A program made the translations under genes and the position numbers. Of a DNA stretch of 64,000 nt, positions 3,031 through 43,492 are shown piece after piece (the stretch's first letter is position 1; each line of letters starts with the position of its first letter). The notes beneath the pieces are model-generated. The model was given only the letters and a program-made list of their open reading frames with translations, ran no database searches and had not been told where the DNA came from. The stretch is from a virus. The stretch lies in IMG/VR virus record IMGVR_UViG_3300029712_000001. One strand, given 5' to 3'.

Positions 3031-3441
3031 ATGAAAGTAGATTTTTTTAACAGTAAGGATTTTTTAGGATCTAAAACTAAAGAAAGCAAGATCCGGAAGT
3101 TGTCAATCAGCAAAAGTAAGATAATGACTATCTCTGTCTATAATTTGAATTGGATGGGGGTAACGGATGCGGTTGTTATCGGCTTAGAAGAAGGGAAGGC
3201 ATTTGAAGGAGTTGAAAATACGGTCTTTTATCTGGCTGCTTCTGATGTTGAAGACGAGAGATCGTTTAAGGTAAATAACCTTGGTGTAAAATACAAGAGA
3301 ATTTACTTAAAAGACCTGCTCGATTATCTTGGATGGGATATAGGAGAAAATTCTTATGCTGTGTATGATATTATAAAAGAAGACAGTAATCTATTCCGTC
3401 TTCAGCTTAGGGTAATAAAAAAGAGTAGGAGTGAAAAATGA
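3031..3441 (+). CDS. Hypothetical protein (136 aa)
   Basis: ATG ORF. Its stop overlaps the ATGATG at 3438. Confidence 0.7.
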   Translation: MKVDFFNSKDFLGSKTKESKIRKLSISKSKIMTISVYNLNWMGVTDAVVIGLEEGKAFEGVENTVFYLAASDVEDERSFKVNNLGVKYKRIYLKDLLDYLGWDIGENSYAVYDIIKEDSNLFRLQLRVIKKSRSEK

Positions 3442-3453
3442 TGAACGATATAG

Positions 3454-4317
3454 ATATTAAAAAACAAAAGAATACTGCTATTTGATTTTGACGGGACGCT
3501 TATAGAAACCGCTTCTGGGAATACGTTCGCTACAGACTTGACAGATATAAGGATTAAGATGGATGTGGTGAATAAGGCTCTTGACCTCATGCAGGAGAAC
3601 GGTGTTAAGGTATTTGCTATCGTAAGCAATCAAGGAGGAGTAGAAGCTGGGTTTGTTTCTGGAGCTGATATTGAAGCTAAGATAGAATACGTACTGAGGT
3701 CCGTACATGATCTGGCGGTAAAGAGAGGCATAAGAGGCGTCCTATATGAAAAAAGGTTGTGTTATTCAAATGACGAACAAGATCCGATGAGGAAGCCTAA
3801 CACTGGCATGATTGATGATATTCTTATGAAGTGTAAAGACACGGTAATGCGTGGTATGAACTTTAGTCAACTTAAGGGATGTTCGTTGATGGTCGGGGAC
3901 GCCAGTGGTCTTCCAGGGCAGTTCTCTGATTCGGATAAGGTATGCGCTGAGAAGGCCGGCGTTGACTATATGGACGTTATTCAGTTTCTTGGTAAAGATC
4001 TTGATTTAGAGTATGTATTGTCCAAAGAACATACAAGTGAAGGAATAGTTATTCTCAACAACGATCATATATATATCCTTGAAAATCCATATGGTGTTGG
4101 TCTTAATATAAAAATCACTTTAAAAGATTTTTATAAGATTGAAACCGATGATGGAAAAACTGCAACCGTAGATGATGTGCTGAATATAAGGATTGATAAA
4201 GATCAGAATTTCAATTTATATAGTGATGTTATAAAAATAGAAACATTAAAAGACGGTAGTATCAAATATACAAGTTTGTATCACGAAAGTAAAGAAAACA
4301 GCGATAGTTTATCATAA
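3454..4317 (+). CDS. HAD-IIIA / polynucleotide-kinase-type 3'-phosphatase domain protein with C-terminal extension; start unresolved
   Basis: Motifs LFDFDGTLIETASGNTF (I), VSNQGG (II), RKPNTGM (III) and VGDASG (IV). Motif I lies upstream of the first canonical start (TTG 3538). The ATGATG at 3438 joins this frame only if the A6 run 3459-3464 is A5. Confidence 0.75.
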   Translation: MLKNKRILLFDFDGTLIETASGNTFATDLTDIRIKMDVVNKALDLMQENGVKVFAIVSNQGGVEAGFVSGADIEAKIEYVLRSVHDLAVKRGIRGVLYEKRLCYSNDEQDPMRKPNTGMIDDILMKCKDTVMRGMNFSQLKGCSLMVGDASGLPGQFSDSDKVCAEKAGVDYMDVIQFLGKDLDLEYVLSKEHTSEGIVILNNDHIYILENPYGVGLNIKITLKDFYKIETDDGKTATVDDVLNIRIDKDQNFNLYSDVIKIETLKDGSIKYTSLYHESKENSDSLS

Positions 4318-5242
4318 ATCGGATTTAGATGGCGTTGTATCGGCAGCCATCGCAACCATGTACGAAAACAGTAAAAACAAGGATGTTGTTTATATCCCGT
4401 ATTCGTATGAAGATGATGTTAAGAAAGTTATCAACAAAGTGCGTGACTTAGATGCTGTTTACGTTCTTGACGTGTCTTTTGGGGTCGATTCTAAAACGAT
4501 TTTCAAAAAGTGGCTTGATGAAGGAAAGAGCCTGATGTGGATAGATCACCATAAGGGAATTATCGAAGATAGTAAGACATGGGGGTTCGTAGTTCCAGGG
4601 TTAAGGAGGGTCGGTGTCGGTGCGTGCGCACTTGCCGCCGACCTGCTGATGGGGAAGGTGCCGGCGATAGTCAGGTGCTTATCAGACTACGATGTGTGGA
4701 ATAAAGAATCCGGTTTAGGCTGGGATACGGTAGTAGCCGTCCAGTATGCCTTGAGATCAAAAATAAGATTGAATGTATTAATAGCATTGTCGTATTTGTA
4801 TGATCACTTTAAAGAAAATATGAAGGACAATGAGGTGGATTTAATTTTCTATGATCTCGCTAAAGAAGGACGTGCTATAATTAACTACATGGCTGGTAAA
4901 AACGAACAAGAGGTAAGTGCGTACTCGTTCGAAGCGTATGTTGATGAGGTGAAGGTCGTGGCGATGAATACTACAGAATTTAGCTCTAAAGTATTTGATT
5001 CTCTTACACCGGACTGGTTAGACGGTAGGAAAATTAAAGCCCTGATGCCATTTTGTATCATGCCAAGTGGTAAAGTCCGGTTCTCTCTTTATGAATGCGT
5101 AGAAGACAGCGCGGATTGCTGTGAGGTAAGTAAGAGATTCGGTGGTGGAGGACATGCTGGTGCTGCTGGATTCGTTATAGACGTATCAAGTGACCAGTTT
5201 AAGGACTTCCTTGAAAACCATAAACTTACTTCAATTCAATAA
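4250..5242 (+). CDS. DHH/DHHA1 phosphoesterase (NrnA/RecJ-like); open frame from 4250, first ATG at 4358
   Basis: YHKSDLDGVVSAAI (DHH motif I, nt 4310-4351), WIDHH, and GGGGHAGAAGF (DHHA1). There is no ATG/GTG/TTG in frame between the stop at 4247 and ATG 4358. Confidence 0.8.
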   Translation, partial: KTVVSNIQVCITKVKKTAIVYHKSDLDGVVSAAIATMYENSKNKDVVYIPYSYEDDVKKVINKVRDLDAVYVLDVSFGVDSKTIFKKWLDEGKSLMWIDHHKGIIEDSKTWGFVVPGLRRVGVGACALAADLLMGKVPAIVRCLSDYDVWNKESGLGWDTVVAVQYALRSKIRLNVLIALSYLYDHFKENMKDNEVDLIFYDLAKEGRAIINYMAGKNEQEVSAYSFEAYVDEVKVVAMNTTEFSSKVFDSLTPDWLDGRKIKALMPFCIMPSGKVRFSLYECVEDSADCCEVSKRFGGGGHAGAAGFVIDVSSDQFKDFLENHKLTSIQ

Positions 5243-5262
5243 ATTAATAAGGTCGTGTTTTA

Positions 5263-5297
5263 AATAGGATTGGTTTCTATCAATCCTATTTTTTTTT
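5263..5297 (+). terminator. Intrinsic terminator
   Basis: AATAGGATTG (5263-5272) pairs with CAATCCTATT (5281-5290), followed by a T-run. Confidence 0.85.
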
Positions 5298-5300
5298 GTT

Positions 5301-5509
5301 GTGTGTGAGGTGGGTGGGTATGTGATGGGAGAGAGGGTAAAAGATGTTTATGTAATGTGGGAGATATGTGAGAAAGAGGTTTATGTCATGAGGGATATGA
5401 AAAAATGTTTATGTGATGGGAGAGAGGGGGTACCTATCACGAACCTCCCGCCCCCGAAACGCGTTTTCTCCCCCGCACCCCCTTCGCTGGAAAACCGGAA
5501 ACGCGTTTT
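5301..5509. repeat. Purine-rich repeat block: 19-nt direct repeat x2, about 30-nt tandem units x3, palindrome GAAACGCGTTTT x2
   Basis: TATGTGATGGGAGAGAGGG at 5319-5337 and 5410-5428. GTTTATGT-containing units near 5339, 5373 and 5400. GAAACGCGTTTT at 5456-5467 and 5498-5509. Confidence 0.8.
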
Positions 5510-5531
5510 TACCTAAAACATACAAACCCGC

Positions 5532-5567
5532 TGATTATCAACGGTTTATTTAAATTATTGATAATCA
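5532..5567. promoter_or_regulatory. Inverted repeat TGATTATCAA / TTGATAATCA (candidate operator)
   Basis: Arms at 5532-5541 and 5558-5567. Related TGATWATCA copies at 5586-5595, 5670-5678 and 7732-7742. Confidence 0.4.
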
Positions 5568-5752
5568 ATGTATTATTATAATCTATTGATTATAAGCCAC
5601 TTAAATAAACATATATCCTACATATTAATGTACGCGTATAATACCGCTCTTGTGTGTTTTATAACTTGCTGATAATCAGATAATAGAATCGAAATTAATA
5701 CAAGTTAACAAAAAAAAGATAGCATATATATTTGTAGTATTGATAAATGTAG

Positions 5753-5760
5753 TATATTTG
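5753..5760 (+). promoter_or_regulatory. -7 box TATATTTG (second copy at 5727-5734)
   Basis: TAnnTTTG matches in the AT-rich region upstream of 5908. Confidence 0.4.
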
Positions 5761-5907
5761 CAATGTGTTAAAGCGATAGCACATAGTTGACATGATGAAC
5801 CTATATAGTGTACCCGTTGGGCTGACTATATCTGTATCTGTTAATCGCCTGCGTTGTGGGCTATTAAATTGAATATCATTTGTTTAACAATTAAAATATA
5901 TTGAGTT

Positions 5908-6447
5908 ATGATTACGAAGAAGAACGTTAACAAGCTGCAAAACGCTGTTATCAAAGAGAATGCCTCGAATTTGGTAGGTGCCGTAAAGTTATACAACGCT
6001 TTATTTGCTAATGGAGCTGATCTTAAGTCTATTTGCAAGGCCTTAGAAATACCGGCAGAATACGCCGTAAAGGTTGCAGCCCTCGCCAAGGATAAAAAAC
6101 GCCTGGTAGCTGTGTGTAGCCAAATGTTACCGAAAGTTGACGATACATTTGTTAAATTTGCTTTATACTCTAAAGTGTATAAGGATACCAATGCAGACAA
6201 AGAGAAAGGCGTTGAGGCTAAAACGGCTGATTGGTGCGCTGAGAATGTGGTTTATGGTAGCGAATATAAATCATTTGGTTTTACTACTGCCGAATCATTG
6301 GAGACCAAAAAAAGCACTAAATGGTTGATAAAAGAAAACGACGAGTATAAAGCTACTTATGTGGCTGTTAAGATCAAATATTATTCTATTCGCACTGTGG
6401 CAAAGTGTGTAAGTGAATATCTCGCACATGAAAGCAACCAGCAGTAA
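5908..6447 (+). CDS. Hypothetical protein (179 aa)
   Basis: ATG ORF preceded by TGTTTAACAATTAAAATAT, the same 19-mer found upstream of 8339. Confidence 0.75.
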   Translation: MITKKNVNKLQNAVIKENASNLVGAVKLYNALFANGADLKSICKALEIPAEYAVKVAALAKDKKRLVAVCSQMLPKVDDTFVKFALYSKVYKDTNADKEKGVEAKTADWCAENVVYGSEYKSFGFTTAESLETKKSTKWLIKENDEYKATYVAVKIKYYSIRTVAKCVSEYLAHESNQQ

Positions 6448-7006
6448 CAAGGCACGGAGAGCGCCGTTAAGCTCTCCAAAGGTTTGTCGCGTACCTTAAC
6501 GCGCCTGTACGCCATTGTCAGTGGGTGCACGTCCCGCGTATGCTTTAGACTGAAGCTGACAAAAAGAGAGTTATTTTACATATTGGAGATAGATATACCG
6601 TTGCCCTTGCCGTTGGCAATTAAAGGGCTGGTATTACTGCATGAATCACCCGAATAGGCGTGATTCATGCTAGGTATGTGATTACAGTTTGGAAAACATG
6701 CCGTTGTACGAGGTTTATCTCCAGATCGAAACGTGTCTTACTTGCTTACACGAAAAAATAGAACAAGGCTGTAGATTAAATTACAGGGTACAAGCATGTA
6801 GCCTACCATGTAGGGACGTGCCGTATCAAAGCGCAAGGACACAATCGCCTTTATTTGTGGCTAAGTTGTGTAGCAGACGGAAAATATAATAACAACATAG
6901 TACGGGCCTGTACACAAGAACTACGTACTAATTACGGGCTGTTGGTTGTAGCATAAAATTCGTACAGGATAGGAATGCGCGTTCGGTTCGATTCCGGAGC
7001 AACCTC
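6448..7006 (+). ncRNA. Long hairpin-dense non-coding segment ending in a tRNA-like T-arm; class unknown
   Basis: No credible ORF. Stems 6456-6462/6471-6477, CATGAATCAC/GTGATTCATG near 6641-6670, and 6907-6913/6962-6968. GC is clearly above the flanks. Confidence 0.35.
6982..7006 (+). other. tRNA-like T-arm plus 3' acceptor strand (module 1)
   Basis: ttcGG-TTCGATT-CCgga, then gcaacct-c. Only a 5-6 bp partner (ggttg at 6944-6948) and 32 nt where a tRNA needs about 41. Confidence 0.5.
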
Positions 7007-7029
7007 TAAATTATAAACAATATAATAAC

Positions 7030-7200
7030 ATGGAAAAGAAAGAAATGATCAACGCTTTAACTGAAGCGTTCAATAAATCTAAAAACATCTGCGTAAAAAT
7101 AACATTGCGTAACTATATCGAGACGGTGGAAACACTCAGTGAAAATGAGTATAAAGAGGCGGAGGGTTTCTATATCGAAGCTCTTAACCGCTGGAGTTAA
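7030..7200 (+). CDS. Hypothetical small protein (56 aa), below the ORF-track cutoff
   Basis: ATG 7030 to TAA 7198-7200, translated by hand (MEKKEMINALTEAF...). Starts 24 nt after tRNA-like module 1. Confidence 0.5.
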   Translation: MEKKEMINALTEAFNKSKNICVKITLRNYIETVETLSENEYKEAEGFYIEALNRWS

Positions 7201-7223
7201 TCATAATTAAAGCATAAAGAAAA

Positions 7224-7430
7224 ATGGAAAGGAAATTTAAATCTCATATGGTAGACGTCCGCGGTCTGTCCAGGAAAGAAGCTAAAGAAAAGCGGAAAAG
7301 AGCGTATCGGGAATTTATGTTGTATCGTGATCTCAAAGAAGCGTATCATGCCGATACGGGAAAGGACAAATGCAAGCGTAAAGTTCATACATCACGAACA
7401 TACGTCAAGGAAAATATAAACAGTATTTAA
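7224..7430 (+). CDS. Hypothetical basic protein (68 aa)
   Basis: ATG ORF, Lys/Arg-rich, followed by a nested hairpin at 7433-7485. Confidence 0.55.
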   Translation: MERKFKSHMVDVRGLSRKEAKEKRKRAYREFMLYRDLKEAYHADTGKDKCKRKVHTSRTYVKENINSI

Positions 7431-7535
7431 ATAGGAGTAGGGTTTTTTCGAATATCGGAGCAGCCCTATTTTTGTATCCTACTCTTTCTATTTACGGGTA
7501 TGATATTCTGAGAGTGAACGGCGAATGTGGACAAT

Positions 7536-7675
7536 ATTGGTCTAAAACGAAACAAAAATAGGAGCGTTCGGATATAATGCCGGTATTTTGTCTATATCAT
7601 GTCGTTAAAATTGGTCTAAAACGAAACTTGAGGCGGTTTTCTGACCCAAAATAGGGTGTCGGATGCCGCCTTTTT
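7536..7675 (+). repeat. Tandem duplication of an about 70-nt unit
   Basis: ATTGGTCTAAAACGAAAC at 7536-7553 and 7610-7627. Both units also carry AAAATAGG..TCGGAT..GCCG. Confidence 0.8.
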
Positions 7676-7676
7676 C
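7631..7676 (+). terminator. Intrinsic terminator closing the tandem-repeat unit
   Basis: AGGCGG (7631-7636) pairs with CCGCCT (7666-7671) around an inner GACCC/GGGT stem, then TTTTT. Confidence 0.6.
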
Positions 7677-7801
7677 GTCTCTATGGATTGAAAATTAGGC
7701 TTATTGTATTTTTCTTAAAAATGAGGTATGCTTGATTATCAATTAGTTATGTTTTATAATACCCGTATTTTCGGACATACTTATTGTATTTTTTTTATTT
7801 T

Positions 7802-7969
7802 ATGTGGTGGTTTTTATTAGTAGCTGACTTTTATTTTCTGTCGGTTGGTATTCGCTCTATGTTGGAGTACGGACCGGATCAGTATAATATTGTAATGGTC
7901 TTTTGCTTTTCTTTATTGGCTTTGATTATAGGTTTAAATATCTATTTTGATAGGAGAAGCAGACGGTAG
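7802..7969 (+). CDS. Possible small two-TM membrane protein (55 aa)
   Basis: ATG within the listed 7784 ORF. Two hydrophobic helices and an RRSRR tail. Isolated inside a long non-coding region. Confidence 0.4.
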   Translation: MWWFLLVADFYFLSVGIRSMLEYGPDQYNIVMVFCFSLLALIIGLNIYFDRRSRR

Positions 7970-8160
7970 GGCGTGGGCTGAAGGCTCTCTATTCTCTCTA
8001 TGGAATTATATTATCTCCAAACACCCCACACTTCATGCCAGAGTATAAGCTTGTAGCGCTCTCCGTATGCCTGTGGCGAGGCTGATAGCGCAGGTTCTAT
8101 GCGGAAAGCCGGAGGATTAGCGGGAGTTGGAGAGGGGGAGAGGGAGGGCACTCCCCACCA

Positions 8161-8313
8161 ACAAAATTCAATAGATAAGCGTTTTAAAACAACATTATGT
8201 AGGGTTTTCCCACAAAATTAAGGATTACAGTGCTTTAAAACAGCAAAATGTGAGTTTATTCTACAAAATTCAATAGGTTGAGAGTTGAAAACTATATTCT
8301 ATAGATTGGTGGT
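8161..8313. repeat. Three imperfect tandem 51-nt repeats
   Basis: Units start with ACAAAATT at 8161, 8212 and 8263. Each has TT(T)AAAAC about 25 nt in. Confidence 0.8.
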
Positions 8314-8338
8314 AATCGGAATGTTTAACAATTAAAAT

Positions 8339-8608
8339 ATGGATGGTATGAACGTATATGATTTTGCACCCGATTTAGATTTGAGTAAGGAGGTAGAAGG
8401 TTCTATTTTTGGGGTGAAAGGAATAGAAGGCAGTGATGGTATAGTATATGCTAAGGTAGTTAGCTGTGTAGACGTTAAGGATTACAGTTGTGATAGGTGT
8501 ATTTTTTATGATTGTTATAAGGATAAATGTTTATTATCGCGTAGTGATAGTTGTATAGATGGAGATTGGATTTGTAGGTACGAACAGGCTGCCATAGAGG
8601 GGGAGTAG
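8339..8608 (+). CDS. Small Cys-rich protein, family 1 (paralogs at 9799 and 38218)
   Basis: FAPDLDLSKEVEGSIF...CDRCIFYDC...C pattern shared with the two other ORFs. Confidence 0.75.
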   Translation: MDGMNVYDFAPDLDLSKEVEGSIFGVKGIEGSDGIVYAKVVSCVDVKDYSCDRCIFYDCYKDKCLLSRSDSCIDGDWICRYEQAAIEGE

Positions 8609-8711
8609 GCGGCGCCTTGGGCTAAGGCCTGCGGTTGTAGGTGGAACGTAGGTCGGAGCAGAGCCTGGACAGTTTATTGTGGAACGTAAAAAAGAAGGAG
8701 GAGATAGCGAT

Positions 8712-8891
8712 ATGAAAAAGGCATTTAAGATATTTTTTATTATGTTTGTCATAGAAATAGTGCTGATAGCTATTTTAGATGCTATGGCGCAAGTGAGAAA
8801 AATTTCTTCATTAATTTTCTTATGCTTTAGACAAAGTGCTCCCGTCTGCGAAGATCGGAGCACTTGCTTTATGGGATTCATGGTGCGGTAG
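8712..8891 (+). CDS. Doubtful small hydrophobic ORF (59 aa)
   Basis: GGAGG lies 10 nt upstream of ATG 8712 and the N-terminus is TM-like. However, the ORF runs through a strong hairpin (8835-8864) and stops exactly at tRNA-like module 2. Confidence 0.3.
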   Translation: MKKAFKIFFIMFVIEIVLIAILDAMAQVRKISSLIFLCFRQSAPVCEDRSTCFMGFMVR

Positions 8892-8916
8892 GTCGGTTCG
8901 ATTCCGGCGATCTCAC
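8892..8916 (+). other. tRNA-like T-arm plus 3' acceptor strand (module 2)
   Basis: gtcGG-TTCGATT-CCggc, then gatctca-c. The best 5' partner (gtgaga, 8793-8798) is 124 nt away. Confidence 0.5.
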
Positions 8917-8945
8917 ACAACATTAAAAACAAAGGAGGAAAGAAA

Positions 8946-9293
8946 ATGAAAGATGGTATTAAATTGCATCCAGAACACGGATTGAATCCGTCTATAGAAG
9001 TCTGCATGATATGTGGCGAAGAGATGGGGATTGCTTTATTAGGGAATAATATCAAAGGGCAGGCACCGCATCATATATGCACGGGCGGAGTATGTGACAA
9101 TTGCAAAAAGATAATAGATGACGGAGGCTGTTTTATTATCGAAGTCGAGGATGGATCAGATCAAAAGAATCCGTATCGTACAGGGAGATATTGTGCGATA
9201 AAGAAAGAGGCAGCAAAGAAAATACTTGGACAGGAGCATAGTATTGTGTACATGGAAAAGTCTGCATACAGTCAAATAATACCACAAAAATAA
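8946..9293 (+). CDS. Zinc-ribbon-like protein (115 aa)
   Basis: CMICG...CDNC motifs. AAGGAGGAA lies 7 nt upstream of the ATG. Confidence 0.75.
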   Translation: MKDGIKLHPEHGLNPSIEVCMICGEEMGIALLGNNIKGQAPHHICTGGVCDNCKKIIDDGGCFIIEVEDGSDQKNPYRTGRYCAIKKEAAKKILGQEHSIVYMEKSAYSQIIPQK

Positions 9294-9301
9294 AGAAGGA
9301 T

Positions 9302-9625
9302 ATGTTTACAAAAGAAGAGCGATTATTTATTTGGAAAGAAGCATATAGGGAAATCGAAGAATTACGTACTGGAGAATATATATGCGTTGCATTGAAACAT
9401 GCAGTATTTAAATTTTTTGTAACTCCTAAAAATTCCGGAACTTTTTATGGGATGCCTTTATATGAACTGGTGAGAACATATTTCCCGGAATTGGAGAAAA
9501 AGAAAAGTATGGCTACAGAACCAGAAGGAAAATGGGGTATGTATGGATGGTTTGGCTGTATTAGTCCAGAAACGAGGGAGGTGAGGCTAAATATCGTAAA
9601 AGACATTATAAAAGAATTAGAATAA
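9302..9625 (+). CDS. Hypothetical protein (107 aa)
   Basis: ATG ORF 8 nt after the previous stop, followed by a terminator. Confidence 0.75.
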   Translation: MFTKEERLFIWKEAYREIEELRTGEYICVALKHAVFKFFVTPKNSGTFYGMPLYELVRTYFPELEKKKSMATEPEGKWGMYGWFGCISPETREVRLNIVKDIIKELE

Positions 9626-9671
9626 TATTTTTGTTAATCTATTTTATTCATCAAATTAAGTTTTGGGTTTT

Positions 9672-9710
9672 GGCATGTCGGTTCGTGAGGATAGACATGC
9701 CTATTTCTGT
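9672..9710 (+). terminator. Intrinsic terminator
   Basis: GGCATGTC (9672-9679) pairs with GACATGCC (9694-9701), then tatttctgt. Confidence 0.6.
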
Positions 9711-9753
9711 ATCATAGAGGGATGACGCGGCGTGCCGGTGCGTATGTGCCGGT

Positions 9754-9778
9754 TCTGGTTCGATTCCAGGAATCTCAC
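9754..9778 (+). other. tRNA-like T-arm plus 3' acceptor strand (module 3)
   Basis: tctGG-TTCGATT-CCagg, then aatctca-c. The 3' tail ATCTCACA.AAC.AT is shared with module 2. Confidence 0.5.
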
Positions 9779-9798
9779 AAACAATAAATCATAATCAT

Positions 9799-10047
9799 AT
9801 GGAAGTAATAACATTCGGTCCGGATATGGATTTGTCTTCTAAAAAAGCAGGAGATGTATTTAGATTAAAATTGTATGGCATAGAGCATGATGTCAAAGTA
9901 GTTGGTGACGATGAAGATCCTCTTATGTTCTGCAAAGATTGTATATTTTTTAACAACTCCGAACGGTGTTCACTCTCAGAATCGCAAGACTGGTGCTTAA
10001 AAAAGCAAGTTGTTTACTGTAAAATAAGACATGATGGGGGAATTTAA
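9799..10047 (+). CDS. Small Cys-rich protein, family 1 paralog (82 aa)
   Basis: FGPDMDLSSKKAGDVF...CKDCIFF...C aligns with 8339..8608. Confidence 0.75.
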   Translation: MEVITFGPDMDLSSKKAGDVFRLKLYGIEHDVKVVGDDEDPLMFCKDCIFFNNSERCSLSESQDWCLKKQVVYCKIRHDGGI

Positions 10048-10222
10048 TGCGAAAGACGCCAATTTCTTATGGCGTCAAATTGGTAGGATTGATGGGGTGA
10101 TAGAAACTCTGAACCGTACCGAAGGAGAGATGCCGGAAATTATAGCTGGAGTGCTAAAAAGAATAAGAGATGATATAGATAAGTTTGTAGATAATAAAAC
10201 AAAAGATTATGAGAATATATAA
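10031..10222 (+). CDS. Hypothetical protein (63 aa)
   Basis: ORF in an overlapping co-directional chain. No motif recognised. Confidence 0.5.
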   Translation: MMGEFNAKDANFLWRQIGRIDGVIETLNRTEGEMPEIIAGVLKRIRDDIDKFVDNKTKDYENI

Positions 10223-10439
10223 AAATGATATTATAAAGGCGTCAGCAATAAGCACCGGCGCCGACAGAGGTGTGTTGCTGTGTTCAATAACAGATTCAGG
10301 ATTCACGTCTATAGCGGGCGTAATATCGGCTGTTAAAGATAAGTTACCAGGCAAAGATCATAAGAAGATGATTTTTGAAATACGGAATGATGGAAGAAAC
10401 GAATATGGCAGATATAATAATTGTGGAGGAAAAATATGA
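10209..10439 (+). CDS. Hypothetical protein (76 aa)
   Basis: ORF in an overlapping co-directional chain. No motif recognised. Confidence 0.5.
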   Translation: MRIYKNDIIKASAISTGADRGVLLCSITDSGFTSIAGVISAVKDKLPGKDHKKMIFEIRNDGRNEYGRYNNCGGKI

Positions 10440-19056: not shown

Positions 19057-19457
19057 TGAAAACACAAAAAGAATATGCCTATAAGATTGGTGAAATCGTT
19101 CTCAGGGATGTGGAAAGTTGCCAGAGTGACTGGTTCCTTATTGATCAGGAAATATTTATGCTTCCTGAAAACCGGAACAAGGCATTTATTTTGGGAACCC
19201 GGAAGACCGGATGTGATTTAATAATACTGGGTGGCACTAATTGTGATGAAGGTAGTATGGATTGGCTTTTCGGTTGCCTTGGCAATGAAAACTTCTATGT
19301 ATGCCAGCCAGTATCTTTCTATAAATCACAACAAGAAATCCAGAAAGTAAATCCGCTTTATGCTTTCAAGGTGGCCACTGCTTATTTTAGAGAACAAGGG
19401 AAGGTTCCGGTATTTGAAGATAGTAACTGTAGATTATTGACATACTCCCATAGCTAA
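19056..19457 (+). CDS. Hypothetical protein (133 aa) whose last 7-8 codons and stop come from the IS right end
   Basis: The IS boundary at 19434/19435 lies inside the ORF. The C-terminal residues LTYSHS and the stop codon are read from IS sequence. Confidence 0.65.
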   Translation: MKTQKEYAYKIGEIVLRDVESCQSDWFLIDQEIFMLPENRNKAFILGTRKTGCDLIILGGTNCDEGSMDWLFGCLGNENFYVCQPVSFYKSQQEIQKVNPLYAFKVATAYFREQGKVPVFEDSNCRLLTYSHS

Positions 19458-19605
19458 AGCAAATGGGATTCTTGGATACAAGCGCAAGAAACCCCGATGT
19501 TGCTATCGCTGGAATTACTCTTGCTCTCCAATTCGGAAATGCCCTTCCGAAGTATATTACGGGCTGCAAGAACATCACGGTCGTTAATTGCGCCGCACGC
19601 TGGGC
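19435..19605 (-). ncRNA. Putative omega-RNA scaffold of the complete copy; 5' limit approximate
   Basis: Stems 19485-19489/19519-19523 and 19495-19498/19505-19508 covary with copy 1. Confidence 0.45.
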
Positions 19606-20593
19606 ACACCCACGTGCGGTCGCGTAACGACAGTCCTTTATTAATGCAGCCGCATTCACAAGTTTTGGAAGAAGGATACCATTTGTCAATCTTGTGTATC
19701 GTTACTCCATATTTTGAAGCGACATACGTAAGTTTATCAATAAAAGAAGAATGACTAAGATCAGAAACCTTCTTTCCCCACAAACGTTTCATTCCTTCAA
19801 TGCTTAGATCTTCAATGAAAATATAATCATATTGTTTGCATAAATCATGAGCTAATTTCCATTGAAAATCTGATCGAAGATCGTTTATTTTACGATACGT
19901 TTGTTGTAGTTCAAACAGTCTCCTTCTTCTATTATTGGATCCTTTCTTTGCATTAGAAAGCCGTTTGTTTAGTTTTCTAATCCTGTTTTGATATTGTTTG
20001 AAGAATAATGGAGACCCAATTTTGCTACCATCACTTTTAGTTAGATAAGTTTTCAGTCCAAAATCCAATCCGATAGATGCACCATCATGTGTCTTTCTAT
20101 AAGAGTTTGAATGATTATGATCTGTAACTACAATCAAACTAAAACGGGAACAGGTTTCTCTAACTATTCTAATTTGTTTAACATTACCTTCGTAGCCTCT
20201 ACTGTATGAGAATCTAAATCGTTTGTTTCCTTTGTTAATTGTTAGACAATTCCCATTTAGGGTAAACCCACCTTGTTTGAAAACAAAAGAGTTGAATTTC
20301 TCCGGTGATTTAAACTTAGGAGGTCGTTTAGCTAACTTCTTAAAGAAACGATTATAAGATTCATCAAGACGTTCAAGTATTTCTTGTGTTGTTTGAGAAT
20401 GAAGTAGATTTCTTTTAATTCTTTTGGCAAAATACTTCTTCATTTTACCAATTGATATATATTTCCCAAATAGTTTGTAGTATCTACGTTGTAGAGCTAA
20501 CGCATGATTCCATACAAAACAACATTCACGAAGCATCTTTTCCAGATACTTCGTTTTCCTGGAATGGTATATGTTGTATTTGTATGAAATCAT
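19454..20593 (-). CDS. tnpB: TnpB RNA-guided nuclease (379 aa)
   Basis: Full-length OrfB-type ORF with an IEDL RuvC-type motif, zinc finger CECGC...CPACG, and DRDVLAARNIL. Confidence 0.92.
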   Translation of the reverse strand: MISYKYNIYHSRKTKYLEKMLRECCFVWNHALALQRRYYKLFGKYISIGKMKKYFAKRIKRNLLHSQTTQEILERLDESYNRFFKKLAKRPPKFKSPEKFNSFVFKQGGFTLNGNCLTINKGNKRFRFSYSRGYEGNVKQIRIVRETCSRFSLIVVTDHNHSNSYRKTHDGASIGLDFGLKTYLTKSDGSKIGSPLFFKQYQNRIRKLNKRLSNAKKGSNNRRRRLFELQQTYRKINDLRSDFQWKLAHDLCKQYDYIFIEDLSIEGMKRLWGKKVSDLSHSSFIDKLTYVASKYGVTIHKIDKWYPSSKTCECGCINKGLSLRDRTWVCPACGAINDRDVLAARNILRKGISELESKSNSSDSNIGVSCACIQESHLL

Positions 20594-24057: not shown

Positions 24058-24720
24058 ATGAATAATTTTGTAATAGATACTCCAGATAATTTCTGGCAAA
24101 TAAGATGGCTTGACAAGTATATGGAAGGTCACAAAGGGTTCATAGCTGGTGGATGTTTTAAAAATATCCTTTCCGGAGAAAAAGTAAAAGACATTGATAT
24201 TTTCTTTGAAAGTGAAAGCGATTTTCAGGAAGCTGTTGATTTGTTCAATGATGAAAAACATCAGAAAGAAGGATGGAAATTTAAGTACAGGAATGAGAAG
24301 GTATGTGCGTTCCAGAAAGAGGGAGAAAAGGTATGGGTAGAGTTCATAGAGTCAGAGTTCGGAAAGCCAGAAGCGATTCTCAGGAGCTTCGACTTTACTG
24401 TAGCAAAAATGGCTTACTACAAGGAGCCTAAATACGAAGAAGAGGAAGATGATTATTTTCCATTCTCATCTGCAAGTATAGTAGCATACGAGTACAAACT
24501 ACTCTACCATGAGAAATTCTTCGAACATCTTCATATGAAGAGGCTGGTCATTGACGAAAATATTCCTTTTCCAGTAAGCACATGGGAACGCTCATATCGG
24601 TATAAAGGATATGGTTACAATATGTGCCGGGAGACAAAGAAAAAACTTCTACAGGCTCTTAAAGATGTAAATGTAGAGGAGGAAGATGTATCTTTGTATG
24701 CTACTGGAGGATGGGATTAA
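24058..24720 (+). CDS. Class II nucleotidyltransferase head-domain protein (CCA-adding / poly(A) polymerase family-like), 220 aa
   Basis: IAGGCFKNILSGEKVKDIDIFF fits the GG..R..L.G....DxD pattern. RSFDFTVAKMAY resembles RRDFTINAMA. Confidence 0.6.
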   Translation: MNNFVIDTPDNFWQIRWLDKYMEGHKGFIAGGCFKNILSGEKVKDIDIFFESESDFQEAVDLFNDEKHQKEGWKFKYRNEKVCAFQKEGEKVWVEFIESEFGKPEAILRSFDFTVAKMAYYKEPKYEEEEDDYFPFSSASIVAYEYKLLYHEKFFEHLHMKRLVIDENIPFPVSTWERSYRYKGYGYNMCRETKKKLLQALKDVNVEEEDVSLYATGGWD

Positions 24721-39894: not shown

Positions 39895-41595
39895 ATGACA
39901 ACAATCATGTACGTGTCAGCTATATTAGCTGTAGTGATTATTTTGACAATCATCGGAGTCTTATCAAGGTATCGTAGATGTAAGCCTAATCAGGTCTTGG
40001 TCGTTTATGGTAAGACAGGTGGGGAAAAGAAGTCGGCGAAATTATATCATGGTGGAGCGGCATTTGTCTTACCTATTATTCAAAGCTATGATGTTTTGTC
40101 AATGGAGCCTATGCAAATAGATTGCAAGCTTACCGGTGCTTTGTCATCTCAGAATATTAGAGTAGATGTACCTACAACCATTACAGTAGCTATCAGTACA
40201 AATCTCGAAATCATGCAAAATGCGGCAGAAAGACTTTTGGGGATGGATACCGAATCTACTGAAAATCTTATTACGGACATCGTTTACGGTCAGATGCGTT
40301 TGATTATTGCTGAAATGACAATCGAAAAACTTAATTCTGACAGGGATGAGTTTTTGGATAAGGCAAGAAAGAACATTGATAACGAGCTTAACAAGTTAGG
40401 TCTTTACCTCCTGAACATCAACATCAGTGACATCAGAGACGAAGCCGGTTATATTATGAACCTTGGTAAGGAGGCTGAAAGTAGGGCTCTGAACGAGGCA
40501 CAGGCTAATATCGAAGAACAGGAGAAGCTGGGTGCTATTAAGATTGCTGTACAGCAGAAGGAGAAAGAAACGGCTGTGGCTAATACCAAAAAAGAGCAAG
40601 AGATTCAAATTGCTTGTACTGAAAAAGAAAAGGAAACGATAGTAGCTGAAACGAAGAAAGAAAAAGAAATAGCTTTAGCTTTAACCGATAAAGAGAAACA
40701 GATCGGTGTAGCTCAAGCAGATAGAGACAGGGCTGCGGTTATCGCAAAAACTTTAACCGACAAGGAATCGGCGATCGTAAGATCTAAGGCAGAACTTGAA
40801 GTAAATAAAGCCGAGGCTGAAAGAATGGAAGAAGTCGGAAAGAATAAGGCTGAAGCTGACAAGGAAGCAGCTATAGCAATACAAGACTCTGAAGCTCAGA
40901 TTAAGAAGGCTGAGGCTGAGAAAAATGCGTCTATAGGATACAACAATGCCCAGAAGGAGGTTGCTGTATCAGTATCAGAACTACAGATCATCAAAGCTCA
41001 ATCAGAGAAGAAGGCCGGAGAAGAAAAAGTTAAATCGGAAGCGGCTGTAAAAACAGCAAAAGAGCTTGCCGACAAAGAAGTGGAAGAAGCTAAGGCTAAG
41101 AAAGTTCAGGCTGCGCTTAAGGCTGAAAAGATTGTGCCGGCTGAAACCCAGAAGGAAGAGGCTATCTTGCAAGCTGATGCCGAGGCCGAGAAGATCAAAC
41201 GCCGGGCTGAGGCTGAGGCAGCAGCACATTTGGCAAAAGCTGAGGCGGAGGCAAAAGCTATTCAGATGAAGCTGGAGGCAGAAGCCGAAGGTAAGAAAAA
41301 GTCGTTAATGGCAGAAGCCGACGGATTTAAGGCCATGGTGGAAGCAGCAGAATCCAATCCTCAGATCGCCATCCAATACAAGATGGTTAATCAGTGGAAA
41401 GAAATTGCCGGAGAACAGGTTAAGGCGTTCGAGCACATCAATCTCGGAAATATCACGGTATTTGACGGCGGTCAGAACAGTACCGGTAATTTCCTTAACA
41501 ATGTTGTCAAGACCGTCGCTCCGGCATTGGGAGTCATTGATCAGCTTCCGATTGCAGATACTTTAAAGAAGCTAAAAGGAGATGACAAAAAATAA
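39895..41595 (+). CDS. Flotillin / SPFH (band 7) family protein, YqiK/FloT-like (566 aa)
   Basis: N-terminal TM, then CKPNQVLVVYG...GGAAFVLPIIQ...IRVDVP...AAERLLG...GQMRLIIAEMTIEKLNSDRDEF...ISDIRDEAGY. A long Ala/Glu/Lys coiled coil follows. Confidence 0.9.
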   Translation: MTTIMYVSAILAVVIILTIIGVLSRYRRCKPNQVLVVYGKTGGEKKSAKLYHGGAAFVLPIIQSYDVLSMEPMQIDCKLTGALSSQNIRVDVPTTITVAISTNLEIMQNAAERLLGMDTESTENLITDIVYGQMRLIIAEMTIEKLNSDRDEFLDKARKNIDNELNKLGLYLLNINISDIRDEAGYIMNLGKEAESRALNEAQANIEEQEKLGAIKIAVQQKEKETAVANTKKEQEIQIACTEKEKETIVAETKKEKEIALALTDKEKQIGVAQADRDRAAVIAKTLTDKESAIVRSKAELEVNKAEAERMEEVGKNKAEADKEAAIAIQDSEAQIKKAEAEKNASIGYNNAQKEVAVSVSELQIIKAQSEKKAGEEKVKSEAAVKTAKELADKEVEEAKAKKVQAALKAEKIVPAETQKEEAILQADAEAEKIKRRAEAEAAAHLAKAEAEAKAIQMKLEAEAEGKKKSLMAEADGFKAMVEAAESNPQIAIQYKMVNQWKEIAGEQVKAFEHINLGNITVFDGGQNSTGNFLNNVVKTVAPALGVIDQLPIADTLKKLKGDDKK

Positions 41596-41734: not shown

Positions 41735-41819
41735 AACCAGAAGAACTGACCAAGCATTATGATCAGTGTTATAACCCCAAATAGTATTAAACCAATATAA
41801 TTCTATTATAAAAGTTTAA

Positions 41820-42085
41820 TACATCTCTTTAAGAGATCGGGTTATTAGCCTAAGCCTTGAAACAAAGGCTACGTTATTTAAGAATAGATAGTTACCTACG
41901 GATGTTTACCCAAGTCTGTAGCTCTAAGGTAAGTGATTAAACAGTTCTGGTATTCAGGAACAGTGTTGCTTATTCAAAACCTTAAATAACATTGGCGATG
42001 GGTACTTACAGGAGAAATCCTGACTTATCCCTAACGGGATTTACATCTACCAAGGAGACCGAAAGGTCTCCGAGGGGATGTATTA
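41820..42085 (+). ncRNA. Structured RNA candidate with several GNRA-capped helices; class unknown
   Basis: Hairpins at 41823-41837, 41853-41870 (loop GAAACA), 41896-41921, 42009-42022 (GAAA), 42027-42040 and 42054-42071 (7 bp + GAAA). The last is enclosed by 42042-42047/42077-42082. No ORF present. Confidence 0.45.
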
Positions 42086-42128: not shown

Positions 42129-42476
42129 ATGGAATTGATTTTGAAACAGAAGAAGAGGAGGATGAAGAGTATGACTGATGAGGAATTTGTATTGGATAAT
42201 AAGAAAAAGGTTGTTGCAAGAAAAAGAATATCTTATTTAAACAAAGGTGATAAAGTATGGATCGTGTCTTCCGACGGGTATCTGCTACACACGGACGTAG
42301 TTAGAGCCGAACGCGGATGGTCTTATGTGGAGATAGACGGGATTCTGTATTGGAAGCGAGGATTAGATGGCAAGCATCGTAATCGTAATAACTACATGCA
42401 GTTTGCCATGACACCAGAAGACGGTAAGAAGTATGTCGTATATTACCCGGAAGGATTTAAAGACAATGACTTATGA
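42129..42476 (+). CDS. Hypothetical protein (115 aa)
   Basis: ATG ORF. ATGA overlap with the next gene. Confidence 0.7.
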   Translation: MELILKQKKRRMKSMTDEEFVLDNKKKVVARKRISYLNKGDKVWIVSSDGYLLHTDVVRAERGWSYVEIDGILYWKRGLDGKHRNRNNYMQFAMTPEDGKKYVVYYPEGFKDNDL

Positions 42477-43492
42477 TGGTCCCGGAAACACATTTGCTAT
42501 ATAAGGAGTTTAATGGTGTGAAACGTCTTGCCATATCTTATTCCCAGATAGATACGTTTCTTACTTGTCCAATGAAATGGTATAAGACTTACGTAGAGGG
42601 TAAAAGGTCTACAGAAAAACAAGAAGCTACATCTTATGGTACGGTTATCCATAAAACACTGGAATACTTCTTTAAGAACGGAAGACAGCCTTCTGGTAAA
42701 GACCTTGGAGAAGCGATAAGTTACTATTCCTATCAAGAAGACATACCTTGGCAATCACCGGAAAATATGATGATAGCCATGAAACAATCTGGGGAGCTTC
42801 TTGCTTGGATTGTGGATCTGTTCAAAAAAGACGGCAATAGGTTTATGATAGCTGATAGTGATCTTAATCCCTGTGAGAAACTTATCAGACACGGCGCTAT
42901 AATTGGAGTCGAAGAAGATTTTGTGCTGCCGTATCGTCTTCCTAAGCCTGTTGATATAAATGGTGACGTTCATACACATGTGTACATAGTAGGATCGGTA
43001 GATCTTCATCTGGCTATAAAGAGCAAGAACGTAGTTCACCATTATGTCATAGATTGGAAATCAGGTAATAAGGTTTTTGATTCTAAGAAGTTGGAAACGA
43101 ATTTACAGCATCCTATATATTCGTTTTACATCTATAGAAAATATGGTGGGGTTCTACCAGATATGAACATCTATTTCTTTACCAGAACCAGGCAGTACCA
43201 AAAGGTTAAGATAGATGAAGAGCGTAAAACAAAATCTATAGAAATGCTAAATGACACTTTGTCTAAAATGTATGATTTTGAAGATAATAGTGTAAAAACA
43301 TTTCAAGCGTACATCCAGGGAGCAGAAGAAGCCAGGTATAGCAAGCGGCGCGCCACCCTAAGCCAGCCTGTTTCGCAAAACAAGCTACCCTGCCCGTCGG
43401 CGCTGTGTTATTATTGTGACTTTGGATTACATAACAAAAACGAATGCCCTTTCTCTTCAGATTGGGATCCGTCTAAAAAGATAAAACGATGA
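42473..43492 (+). CDS. Cas4-like PD-(D/E)XK exonuclease with Cys cluster (339 aa)
   Basis: LTCPMKWY (N-terminal Cys), GTVIHKTLEYF, GSVDLHL, VIDWKSG and LQHPIYSFYIY. C-terminal CPSALCYYC......C. Confidence 0.7.
   Translation: MMVPETHLLYKEFNGVKRLAISYSQIDTFLTCPMKWYKTYVEGKRSTEKQEATSYGTVIHKTLEYFFKNGRQPSGKDLGEAISYYSYQEDIPWQSPENMMIAMKQSGELLAWIVDLFKKDGNRFMIADSDLNPCEKLIRHGAIIGVEEDFVLPYRLPKPVDINGDVHTHVYIVGSVDLHLAIKSKNVVHHYVIDWKSGNKVFDSKKLETNLQHPIYSFYIYRKYGGVLPDMNIYFFTRTRQYQKVKIDEERKTKSIEMLNDTLSKMYDFEDNSVKTFQAYIQGAEEARYSKRRATLSQPVSQNKLPCPSALCYYCDFGLHNKNECPFSSDWDPSKKIKR

Follow-up and report, generated by a model that had tools for sequence, protein, structure and literature searches.

Structures that resemble part of a transfer RNA (tRNA) and decode nothing have been described in several kinds of transcript. 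Among them are the t-elements of plant mitochondria, non-canonical and non-decoding tRNA-like folds within mRNA precursors, up- or downstream of genes, which were found via the T-arm motif GGTTCRANYCC, whose ends coincide with mRNA ends made by ribonuclease (RNase) Z or RNase P, and which are thought or shown to direct the cuts generating those 5' and 3' ends (Forner et al., 2007; PMC1920247). Here we consider three modules (modules 1, 2 and 3, ending at 7005, 8916 and 9778, all on the + strand) in IMG/VR virus record IMGVR_UViG_3300029712_000001, a stretch of 64,000 nt that is referred to as a whole as the window. The modules proved to be genuine, conserved RNA structures, and they reproduce only the top half of a tRNA. 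They carry a T arm of the t-element type and a non-canonical tRNA-like fold within what would be an mRNA precursor, a likeness of functional class and not of homology. While t-elements are organellar, non-homologous to the phage elements and mostly degenerate cloverleaves, the phage elements are compact assemblies of acceptor, linker and T arm of about 45 nt, placed at a very regular distance from the next start codon.

Other tRNA-like RNAs share part of this anatomy. The YrlA-type Y RNAs are bacterial and phage tRNA mimics that combine a T arm with an acceptor-like stem and features of a D loop, have no anticodon function and in some cases are substrates of RNase P and of CCA addition (Chen et al., 2014; PMC4201824); nonetheless, they are free-standing non-coding RNAs of about 100 nt encoded beside rsr (Ro60), with a full D arm and with a Ro-binding stem replacing the anticodon stem, whereas the phage modules lie between protein genes, have no D stem, match nothing in Rfam and have no TROVE protein among the open reading frames (ORFs) scanned. 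In MALAT1-mascRNA, MEN-beta and animal mitochondrial punctuation (see PMC11693755), a tRNA or tRNA-like fold in a long transcript is the place where RNase P and RNase Z separate the RNAs. Module 1, which terminates a long structured RNA, recalls the arrangement of a long non-coding RNA and its mascRNA, although those systems are eukaryotic or organellar, mascRNA keeps a cloverleaf with an anticodon-like arm, and processing of the phage RNA is predicted. The tRNA-like domain of transfer-messenger RNA (tmRNA) also combines an acceptor with a consensus T arm and has no anticodon arm, and a distal pairing model of module 1 likewise pairs both RNA ends beside the T arm; unlike tmRNA, the phage modules have neither a conserved G3.U70 nor CCA nor a credible tag reading frame, and in modules 2 and 3 the 5' strand is only 13-29 nt from the T stem. 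Synthetic minihelices built of acceptor and T arm, which are laboratory constructs, are substrates of RNase P, RNase Z, the CCA-adding enzyme and alanyl-tRNA synthetase, and among natural phage RNAs phi80 M3 RNA and the P1/P7 C4 RNA precursor are RNase P substrates; the modules have the same minimal 12-bp coaxial helix of acceptor and T stem, closed by a T loop. To our knowledge natural phage substrates of RNase P are single cases, and we know of no widespread family of them placed before start codons. Many unnamed tRNA-like candidates have been listed in IMG/VR, without this architecture (PMC10690425), and a full-text literature search returned no description of this compact anticodon-less class of elements in phages. 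Processing elements and mimics of tRNA type are known kinds of RNA, while a widespread compact phage family located before start codons was not found described and is absent from Rfam 15.

The three T arms are defined by the motif GGTTCGATTCC, of which the whole 64 kb contains just three exact copies, at 6985, 8895 and 9757; all of them belong to the + strand and fall in a segment of 2.8 kb. With one mismatch allowed, shuffled versions of the 64 kb contain on average 0.81 sites and never reach 5. Each exact copy forms the core of a 5-bp stem that carries the 7-nt loop UUCGAUU, and no further T arm of the same type was found on either strand of the window.

6982-6998, + strand: T stem of module 1, TTCGG/CCGGA, read from the sequence
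8892-8908, + strand: T stem of module 2, GTCGG/CCGGC, read from the sequence
9754-9770, + strand: T stem of module 3, TCTGG/CCAGG, read from the sequence

A first-pass annotation, made by a model from the letters of the window, had claimed three such modules, each with an acceptor-like strand behind a T stem of 5 bp, and these were borne out at 6982, 8892 and 9754. The start codons that it placed after them (7030, 8946 and 9799) begin reading frames that encode 56, 115 and 82 aa, and the tail common to modules 2 and 3 is real, with one gap needed per copy, ATCTCACA(C)AAC(A)AT.

Conservation of the modules could be followed in related phages. The only GenBank phage matching the region is csAssE-Sib (OR575929), a 151-kb human-gut phage with 89% identity, and a pattern scan of IMG/VR recovered at least 119 stretches of gut-phage contigs with modules 2 and 3, mostly on contigs of 80-170 kb, with 43 T arms of the module 1 type among those stretches. 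Substitutions in the T stems always preserve pairing, often through G.U, indicating an RNA read from the + strand. Acceptor sequences differ completely between element types with complementarity kept, as in GGUUGU/GCAACC and GGGAUU/GAUCUC in the window and in GGGACG/CGUCCC (L039) and GAUAUG/CAUAUC (L004) among other module types of the same phage group (L numbers denote the individual phage loci compared).

In module 2 the parts are arranged as follows.

8836-8863, + strand: hairpin accessory to module 2, its 12-bp stem interrupted by a single C-C mismatch and capped by a GCGA tetraloop
8872-8916, + strand: module 2, a 45-nt mini tRNA-like element (minihelix) made of acceptor, linker and T arm
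8917-9293, + strand: leader (8917-8945) and a 115-aa zinc-ribbon-like gene (ORF 8946-9293), from the ORF list

The acceptor joins UGGGAUU (8872-8878) to GAUCUCA (8909-8915) with 7 of 7 positions paired, the linker has 13 nt (CAUGGUGCGGUAG, 8879-8891), and the T arm (8892-8908) is followed by the 3' acceptor strand and the discriminator C8916; the 7-bp acceptor and the 5-bp T stem form the 12-bp coaxial helix of the tRNA 'top half'. In the variant L063 (GGGAUU/AAUUCC) three bases of the 3' strand are changed and all the proximal pairs are kept. Compensatory variation also occurs in the accessory hairpin, which relatives carry as GUGCUCC/GGAGCAC, AUGCUCC/GGAGCAU, ACGCUCC/GGAGCGU or AUGCUAC/GUAGCAU. 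A small hydrophobic ORF (8713-8891, + strand) extends through the module 2 RNA in the window; the same ORF in csAssE-Sib (L001, CDS 1196-1315) has a TAA at 1313-1315 directly before GTGAGA, and thus the C-terminal part of the window ORF is probably non-coding.

Module 3 follows the same plan with a longer linker.

9672-9701, + strand: upstream hairpin of module 3, GGCAUGUC/GACAUGCC, with the loop motif CGUGAGGAUA at 9684-9693
9719-9778, + strand: module 3, a mini tRNA-like element whose linker contains an extra hairpin
9779-10047, + strand: leader (9779-9798) and an 82-aa Cys-rich gene (ORF 9799-10047), from the ORF list

Its acceptor has 5 bp in the window (GGGAU 9719-9723 with AUCUC 9772-9776) and 6 bp in most relatives (GGGAUG/CAUCUC). 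The 29-nt linker consists of ACGCGGCGU and a 20-nt hairpin (9734-9753), which is precisely missing from the relatives L041 and L074, and precedes the T arm at 9754-9770, where all substitutions preserve pairing. The upstream hairpin shows pair-preserving changes only (GC 24, GU 18 at one pair; UG 37, UA 5 at another). Partners for the 3' acceptor strands of modules 2 and 3 had initially been placed 93-124 nt away, and closer ones exist, TGGGATT at 8872-8878 and GGGAT(G) at 9719-9724. Distal GUGAG(A/G) partners fit most sequences, but the pairing is broken in L063 and in L017, where the compensatory change GGAAUG/CAUUC keeps the proximal acceptor at the expense of the distal GUGAGG partner; distal partners were consequently rejected as the main pairing, and an alternative conformation that uses them is possible.

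Some further observations concern the surroundings of modules 2 and 3. A motif, cGUGAGGAWA, is found 30-60 nt upstream of differing mini elements, in the window at 9684-9693 and 8794-8803 and elsewhere in L039 (10949-10958), L214 (498-507, - strand) and L238 (2065-2074); it lies inside a hairpin loop wherever this could be checked. In modules 2 and 3 its sequence also complements that of the 3' acceptor strand, and the motif might serve as a switch, in a tertiary contact or as a site for a protein. The genes at 8339-8608 and 9799-10047 code for paralogous small Cys-rich proteins, 37% identical over 68 aa (E = 2e-7).

Module 1 is associated with a much larger structure.

6480-6943, + strand: body of a large structured non-coding RNA ending in module 1, from fold and covariation
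6944-7005, + strand: module 1, a tRNA-like domain without D arm or anticodon, with a proximal 6-bp acceptor
7006-7200, + strand: A-rich leader (7006-7029) and a 56-aa gene (ORF 7030-7200), from the ORF list

The acceptor of module 1 is a perfect 6-bp helix of GGUUGU (6944-6949) and GCAACC (6999-7004), and the 32 nt separating GGUUGU from the T stem agree exactly with what had been claimed for this module at the outset. This linker forms an arm, GCAU 6951-6954 with AUGC 6975-6978, around the hairpin AUUC-GUACA-GGAU (6958-6970). Compensatory changes were found both in this inner hairpin, of the general form AUYY-loop-RRAU (CG 17, UG 12, UA 8), and in the T stem (CG 33, UA 4 at one pair; CG 26, UG 10, UA 1 at another). 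The loop of the inner hairpin varies among close relatives and is therefore not an anticodon. The stop of ORF 5908-6447 and the ATG at 7030 are separated by 580 nt, and the fold of 6448-7029 has z = -3.6, with none of 100 shuffles as good. An alignment of 37 distinct homologues supports 151 consensus pairs, 99% paired, in 26 helices, and contains 22 compensatory pairs against 10.8 in column shuffles (reached in 0 of 500) and 1-6 in slid controls; many pairs alternate G.U with A-U or G-C, again indicating an RNA read from the + strand. RNAalifold closes this RNA of about 525 nt by pairing AGGUU (6480-6484) with AACCU (7001-7005) beside the T stem, which is lengthened to 7 pairs, giving a 12-bp stack, and a third pairing, of ACAAC (6892-6896) with GUUGU (6945-6949), can also be drawn. 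Since the closed, the proximal and the third model all rest on invariant bases, covariation does not choose among them. No Rfam family matched the RNA at E<=10 (6440-7030), which may be a new large structured phage RNA. Right after the stop of ORF 5908-6447, a separate hairpin (6455-6477) co-varies, GGAGAGC/GCUCUCC against GGCGGAC/GUCCGCC, and is present in about half of the relatives and cleanly missing in the others.

The first-pass annotation saw no complete tRNA in the region, and the programs agree with it, as neither ARAGORN nor Rfam gave a tRNA or tmRNA here. ARAGORN, in tRNA and tmRNA modes, returned 0 genes for the whole window, and Rfam, at gathering score or E<=10, returned no known family over 6300-10100 or over 6440-7030 alone: the tRNA models gave nothing significant, with a 17.6-bit partial match to tRNA-Sec at most, and the tmRNA models matched an 11-nt T loop only, at 7 bits, and nothing in 6440-7030. 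Mini elements from nine other phage loci gave nothing beyond a T-loop fragment when compared with Rfam. In a positive control Rfam recovered every true tRNA of one locus, while ARAGORN found an ordinary tRNA cluster (Met, Gln, Arg and Cys) about 7 kb upstream of module 1 in related contigs, so that both tools do recognise tRNAs of such phages. When run with lowered thresholds or in intron or mitochondrial mode, ARAGORN produced artefacts only, including two weak 'mtRNA' calls that include no T arm. The intron-mode 'tRNA-Val' at 8873-9778, with an intron of 816 nt, joins the 5' strand of module 2 to the 3' end of module 3; it arises because the two modules share their acceptor sequence, and its 'intron' holds two conserved protein genes. 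Module 1 was also considered as a tRNA split by a group I intron and rejected, the candidate 5' half (6480-6512) having no GG D loop, a poor acceptor match, a variable 'anticodon' and no match to an intron model.

Judged by anatomy, only the T arm and the acceptor of a canonical cloverleaf (RF00005/ARAGORN) are present. No anticodon is conserved, as the loop of module 1 (6962-6966) reads GUACA, GUAUA, CUAUA or AUAUA among close relatives and modules 2 and 3 have no anticodon-type arm, and the hallmarks of tmRNA (G3.U70 with CCA, pseudoknots, a tag frame) were not found together, a G3.U70 being present in modules 2 and 3 and lost in L063. An alanine identity of modules 2 and 3 through G3.U70 was rejected, as L063 has G-C at this position and most family members do not have the pair. 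The modules lack an encoded CCA at their 3' ends, as does the tRNA-Cys of related phages, which implies that this phage group already relies on host 3' processing and CCA addition.

Elements of this kind extend well beyond the relatives of the window. A first scan of IMG/VR, for the T loop with an ACAAA tail, kept the T arms not called by ARAGORN and yielded 64, many of them with a complementary 5' strand nearby; in the cases with short linkers, the linker started with an (A/C)AUGGU-like, D-loop-like sequence that had not been selected for. A second scan, for ATGGT-N9-11-GGTTCGATTCC, left the acceptor unconstrained, and a flanking complementary 7-mer was present in 51 of 79 unique elements, against 14.4 +/- 3.3 (maximum 25) when the 3' strand was shuffled. 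The full plan, with a 7-bp acceptor, a linker of 10-15 nt and a T arm in a 12-bp stack, is displayed by 22 elements of unrelated phages. From 14 of these 22, none belonging to the phage group of the window, a covariance model (R1) was built, whose best match in the window is module 2 at full length (25 bits, E = 1.6e-4), with a match at E = 3e-7 in L238. R1 matches modules 1 and 3 over the T arm only (15.2 and 12.4 bits), because their linkers have 32 and 29 nt; their proximal acceptors were identified by direct search and from natural variants, and these two are expanded variants rather than typical family members. Module 2 has every feature by which the R1 family is defined, namely an acceptor of 6-7 bp, a linker of 10-15 nt starting near AUGGU, a 5-bp T stem, a UUCGAUU loop and a 3' acceptor strand abutting the T stem.

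The genomic position of the family is equally regular. In 26 of 54 unique unrelated elements, an ORF of 40 aa or more starts with an ATG 14-41 nt downstream on the same strand, against 9.9% of random positions in the same loci, and the stop of the upstream co-directional ORF precedes the element by a median of 65 nt, with 18 cases at 18 nt or less. Only one of 60 elements falls inside an ORF of the same strand, and 6 of 54 are located less than 1 kb from a tRNA gene. The typical layout is thus the stop of gene A, 0-60 nt, the mini element, 20-40 nt and the start of gene B, and the modules of the window fit it, with 25, 29 and 20 nt to the next ATG for modules 1, 2 and 3, respectively. A regulator specific to one gene family was rejected, as the proteins encoded downstream of 37 elements fall into many unrelated groups. 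Three elements of the wider set have peculiarities of their own: one in L251 (about 3200-3245) has an alanine-type acceptor with G1-C72, G2-C71, G3.U70, A73 and an encoded CCA, the 5' part of one in L185 (about 5870-5945) resembles the 5' end of tmRNA, and L280 (1637-2429) holds three tandem mini elements with the same 21-nt sequence after each.

Each module is followed by differing genes in different relatives, and thus marks a mosaic junction. In 13 related contigs the similarity to the window ends at about 7041, meaning that the gene downstream of module 1 has been replaced; in csAssE-Sib and others a different gene is inserted right after ...ACACAACAUUAAAA of module 2; and at least two alternative downstream genes follow module 3. 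The contigs L048 and L099 have arisen by recombination with deletion: module 2 is joined there to module 3 or to the gene that follows module 3, and the crossover within the shared T loop or tail indicates that the repeated modules mediate the loss of cassettes.

The anatomy of a minimal substrate for tRNA-end processing, taken together with the intercistronic context, leads us to favour, tentatively and with a confidence that stays just short of even, a reading of the modules as intercistronic processing signals, cut by the RNase P and RNase Z of the host, that separate cistrons and leave a short standard leader. Processing signals had been one of four possibilities raised by the first-pass annotation; anatomy and context support it best among them, while the cleavage itself is a prediction, and the initial interpretation as a whole is partly supported. 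According to the favoured model, each element would be part of a polycistronic phage transcript and lie in the gap that separates two successive coding regions, with the short G-G-containing linker standing in for the D arm, the anticodon arm and the variable region, and the tRNA-maturation enzymes of the host would handle it like a pre-tRNA. The 5' edge of the acceptor would be the RNase P site, located before 8872, before about 9719 and before either 6944 or 6480, and the cut by RNase Z or an equivalent enzyme would follow the discriminator, near 8916, 9778 and 7005. The product would be a small tRNA-like RNA, for module 1 possibly the entire 525-nt RNA; the upstream message would gain a defined 3' end, and the downstream gene would keep an unstructured A-rich leader of about 20-30 nt regardless of the sequence upstream. 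Such portable punctuation, or insulation, of gene starts would explain why the modules sit at junctions of gene-cassette exchange, and the repeated modules also act as sites of homologous recombination. What the sequences show is the structures with their conservation and covariation, the wider phage family and the placement beside genes, while transcription, cleavage and insulation are predicted. Precedents exist, since the ends of t-elements coincide with processed mRNA ends (PMC1920247) and a bacterial tRNA mimic with a 7-bp acceptor is cleaved by RNase P RNA and receives CCA (PMC4201824).

Several points weigh against this reading. In the proximal model, the acceptors of modules 1 and 3 have only 5-6 pairs, and the resulting stack of 11 bp is not optimal for RNase P. 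In the window the 5-bp acceptor of module 3 is also bordered by mismatches, and there is no RCCA 3' tail to engage bacterial RNase P RNA. A bare signal would need neither the hairpin at 8836-8863, nor the hairpin at 9672-9701 with CGUGAGGAUA, nor a body of 460 nt, and it leaves the alternative distal partners unexplained, which hint at a switch or a tertiary fold; the conserved accessory hairpins, CGUGAGGAWA and the distal pairings together suggest a function beyond that of a bare cleavage signal. The source elements of R1 were chosen for complementarity, which makes its table of covarying pairs partly circular. Finally, an AT-rich block at 9626-9665 is nearly invariant and could be a promoter, in which case module 3 would be a primary 5' leader. 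Scans of 5200-10400 for sigma-70-type promoters and terminators gave 19 promoter-like sites against 18 in shuffles, a type that is probably not that of the host, and the Bacteroidota-type pattern TTTG-N17-23-TAnnTTTG was not enriched (5 against 3.2) and did not occur upstream of the modules in the window. A Shine-Dalgarno-like sequence precedes 6 of the 49 window genes and the leaders are A-rich, features that would fit a host of Bacteroidota type.

These last observations bear on an explanation in which the element is not cut and acts in cis as a 5' leader, either as a stabiliser blocking RNases that depend on the 5' end, or as a ribosome-contacting or standby structure aiding initiation about 25-35 nt downstream. 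Besides the scarcity of Shine-Dalgarno sequences, the unstructured A-rich leaders and the possible promoter-like block upstream of module 3, this explanation would account for the tight spacing to the start codon (mode 22-41 nt), just beyond the footprint of the 30S subunit, and a precedent is offered by yjdF (PMC9142559), a bacterial 5'-untranslated-region RNA with a tRNA-like fold that is reported to regulate translation. Nevertheless, the elements in L157, L309 and L230 precede genes with strong Shine-Dalgarno sequences, which are therefore not replaced by the element, many elements begin 0-18 nt past the upstream stop as is typical of intercistronic sites, and a stabilising hairpin has no need of the exact 12-bp geometry of tRNA processing. 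We consider a leader of this kind unlikely.

Alternatively, the elements might give rise to stable tRNA mimics acting in trans, RNAs of about 45 nt, excised and perhaps provided with CCA, in addition to the 525-nt RNA, that serve as decoys or inhibitors of host factors binding tRNA, for instance defence toxins that target acceptor ends, the CCA-adding enzyme or EF-Tu; in a variant of this idea the tRNA-like module would keep exonucleases away from the large RNA, a role that has been suggested for bacterial Y RNAs. That module 1 ends a large covarying RNA with pairable ends, like tmRNA and MALAT1-mascRNA, that the accessory motifs conserved around the modules exceed the needs of a cleavage signal, and that phage YrlA mimics are substrates of both RNase P and CCA addition (PMC4201824) all speak for it. 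The same can be said of the G3.U70 and ACCA encoded in L251 and of the nearby genes for repair of RNA ends (PNK3P phosphatase and DHH phosphoesterase) together with the tRNA cluster of relatives. Yet the strong coupling to the next start codon is unexpected for free-standing genes of small RNAs, G3.U70 is unconserved, being lost in L063 and missing in most family members, and no Ro60/TROVE protein was encoded among the 30 ORFs scanned. A CCA-family nucleotidyltransferase, assigned to the ORF at 24058 by the first-pass annotation, was not confirmed: the ORF has no Pfam or PDB match and a weak PHROG 'nucleotidyltransferase' match at 5.7e-9. Overall, we regard action in trans as rather improbable for the family, while tRNA-mimic 3' ends, especially that of module 1, are still possible.

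The modules could also be features of the DNA without any function as RNA, i.e., remnants of decayed tRNA genes, fragments of phage attachment sites (attP) or linkers that promote recombination. They do stand at mosaic breakpoints, with L048 and L099 as recombinants between modules 2 and 3, they are probably descendants of tRNA genes, their T loop being that of consensus tRNA, and module 1 has a trailer (U-CUAAA) similar to the one behind the phage tRNA-Cys. Mere DNA would not, however, be expected to preserve pairs through G.U on the + strand only and to accumulate compensatory changes, an attP fragment has no use for the 5' acceptor strand, which is present and co-varies, and every element is oriented with the genes. 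An attP copied from a host tRNA, or more generally an att-type tRNA 3' fragment, was in fact rejected: the 23-mer pattern, searched in 185,579 bacterial and archaeal genomes (one representative per species), gave 7 hits, none in a tRNA gene, six of which are chance matches while one is a phage-like contig of 3.9 kb carrying module 2, and no integrase domain was found among the 30 ORFs scanned, which included all those located between 1 and 12 kb of the window. In none of these representative genomes, accordingly, does a tRNA end in this 23-mer. Simple decay of tRNA genes finds no support either, as more than 100 contigs retain the modules, with substitutions that preserve the pairs, and a purely DNA-level role appears very unlikely. 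Unusual decoding tRNAs missed by the software, for example armless or with a large intron, are exceedingly improbable, for the intron-mode 'tRNA-Val' at 8873-9778 that might speak for them stands against the lack of an anticodon arm, the changing middle triplet in the sole candidate loop (module 1) among close relatives, and the lack of a significant Rfam match to tRNA or tRNA-Sec from tools that both detect the ordinary tRNAs of related phages.

Beyond the modules, a few features of the window are worth recording.

3538-4317, + strand: protein with a polynucleotide kinase 3'-phosphatase domain, from a domain match
4358-5242, + strand: DHH/DHHA1 phosphoesterase, from a domain match, adjoining 3538-4317
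19454-20593, - strand: TnpB-like ORF (OrfB_IS605 and a Cas12f1-like TNB domain), on the opposite strand to nearly all other genes
41771-42009, + strand: HEARO (IscB omega-RNA family), Rfam match of 112 bits
61913-62776, - strand: ORF with WDGH and Tad2-like (Thoeris anti-defence 2) domains, from a domain match

The first two, lying just downstream of the site of the tRNA cluster of relatives, suggest a neighbourhood for the repair of RNA ends (3538-5242). No IscB- or HNH-like ORF adjoins the HEARO match, whose neighbours are an SPFH/flotillin protein (39895-41595) and a PD-(D/E)XK nuclease (42473-43492). The 900-nt non-coding stretch between the operon of module 1 and ORF 8339 contains short direct repeats at 7530-7630 and 8160-8290, namely AUUGGUCUAAAACGAAAC, which occurs twice, and UUUAAAACA(A/G)CA..AUGU(A/G)G, in several copies, and terminator-like hairpins occur at about 7440-7475 and 7653-7680.

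Read most broadly, the elements would constitute an undescribed and widespread class of anticodon-less 'mini-tRNAs' of about 45 nt, excised by the host and acting as punctuation or insulators and as recombination joints, with module 1 capping a new 525-nt RNA with paired ends and the excised units perhaps serving as CCA-tailed decoys for tRNA-directed defences; in this full extent the proposal is possible but doubtful. If the narrower, favoured processing model holds and the modules are cut by RNase P and RNase Z, many phages in many environments would divide their polycistronic messages by means of the tRNA-maturation enzymes of the host. Punctuation of tRNA type is established in mitochondria and is unrecognised as a general strategy of phages, and, if true, it would account for the recurrence of a conserved sequence at mosaic junctions. 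It would moreover improve the annotation of phage genomes, where such sites are now missed or mis-called as tRNA fragments or hypothetical ORFs (as with 8713-8891), would provide synthetic biology with compact natural 'insulator' parts, and would flag the 525-nt RNA for structural study.

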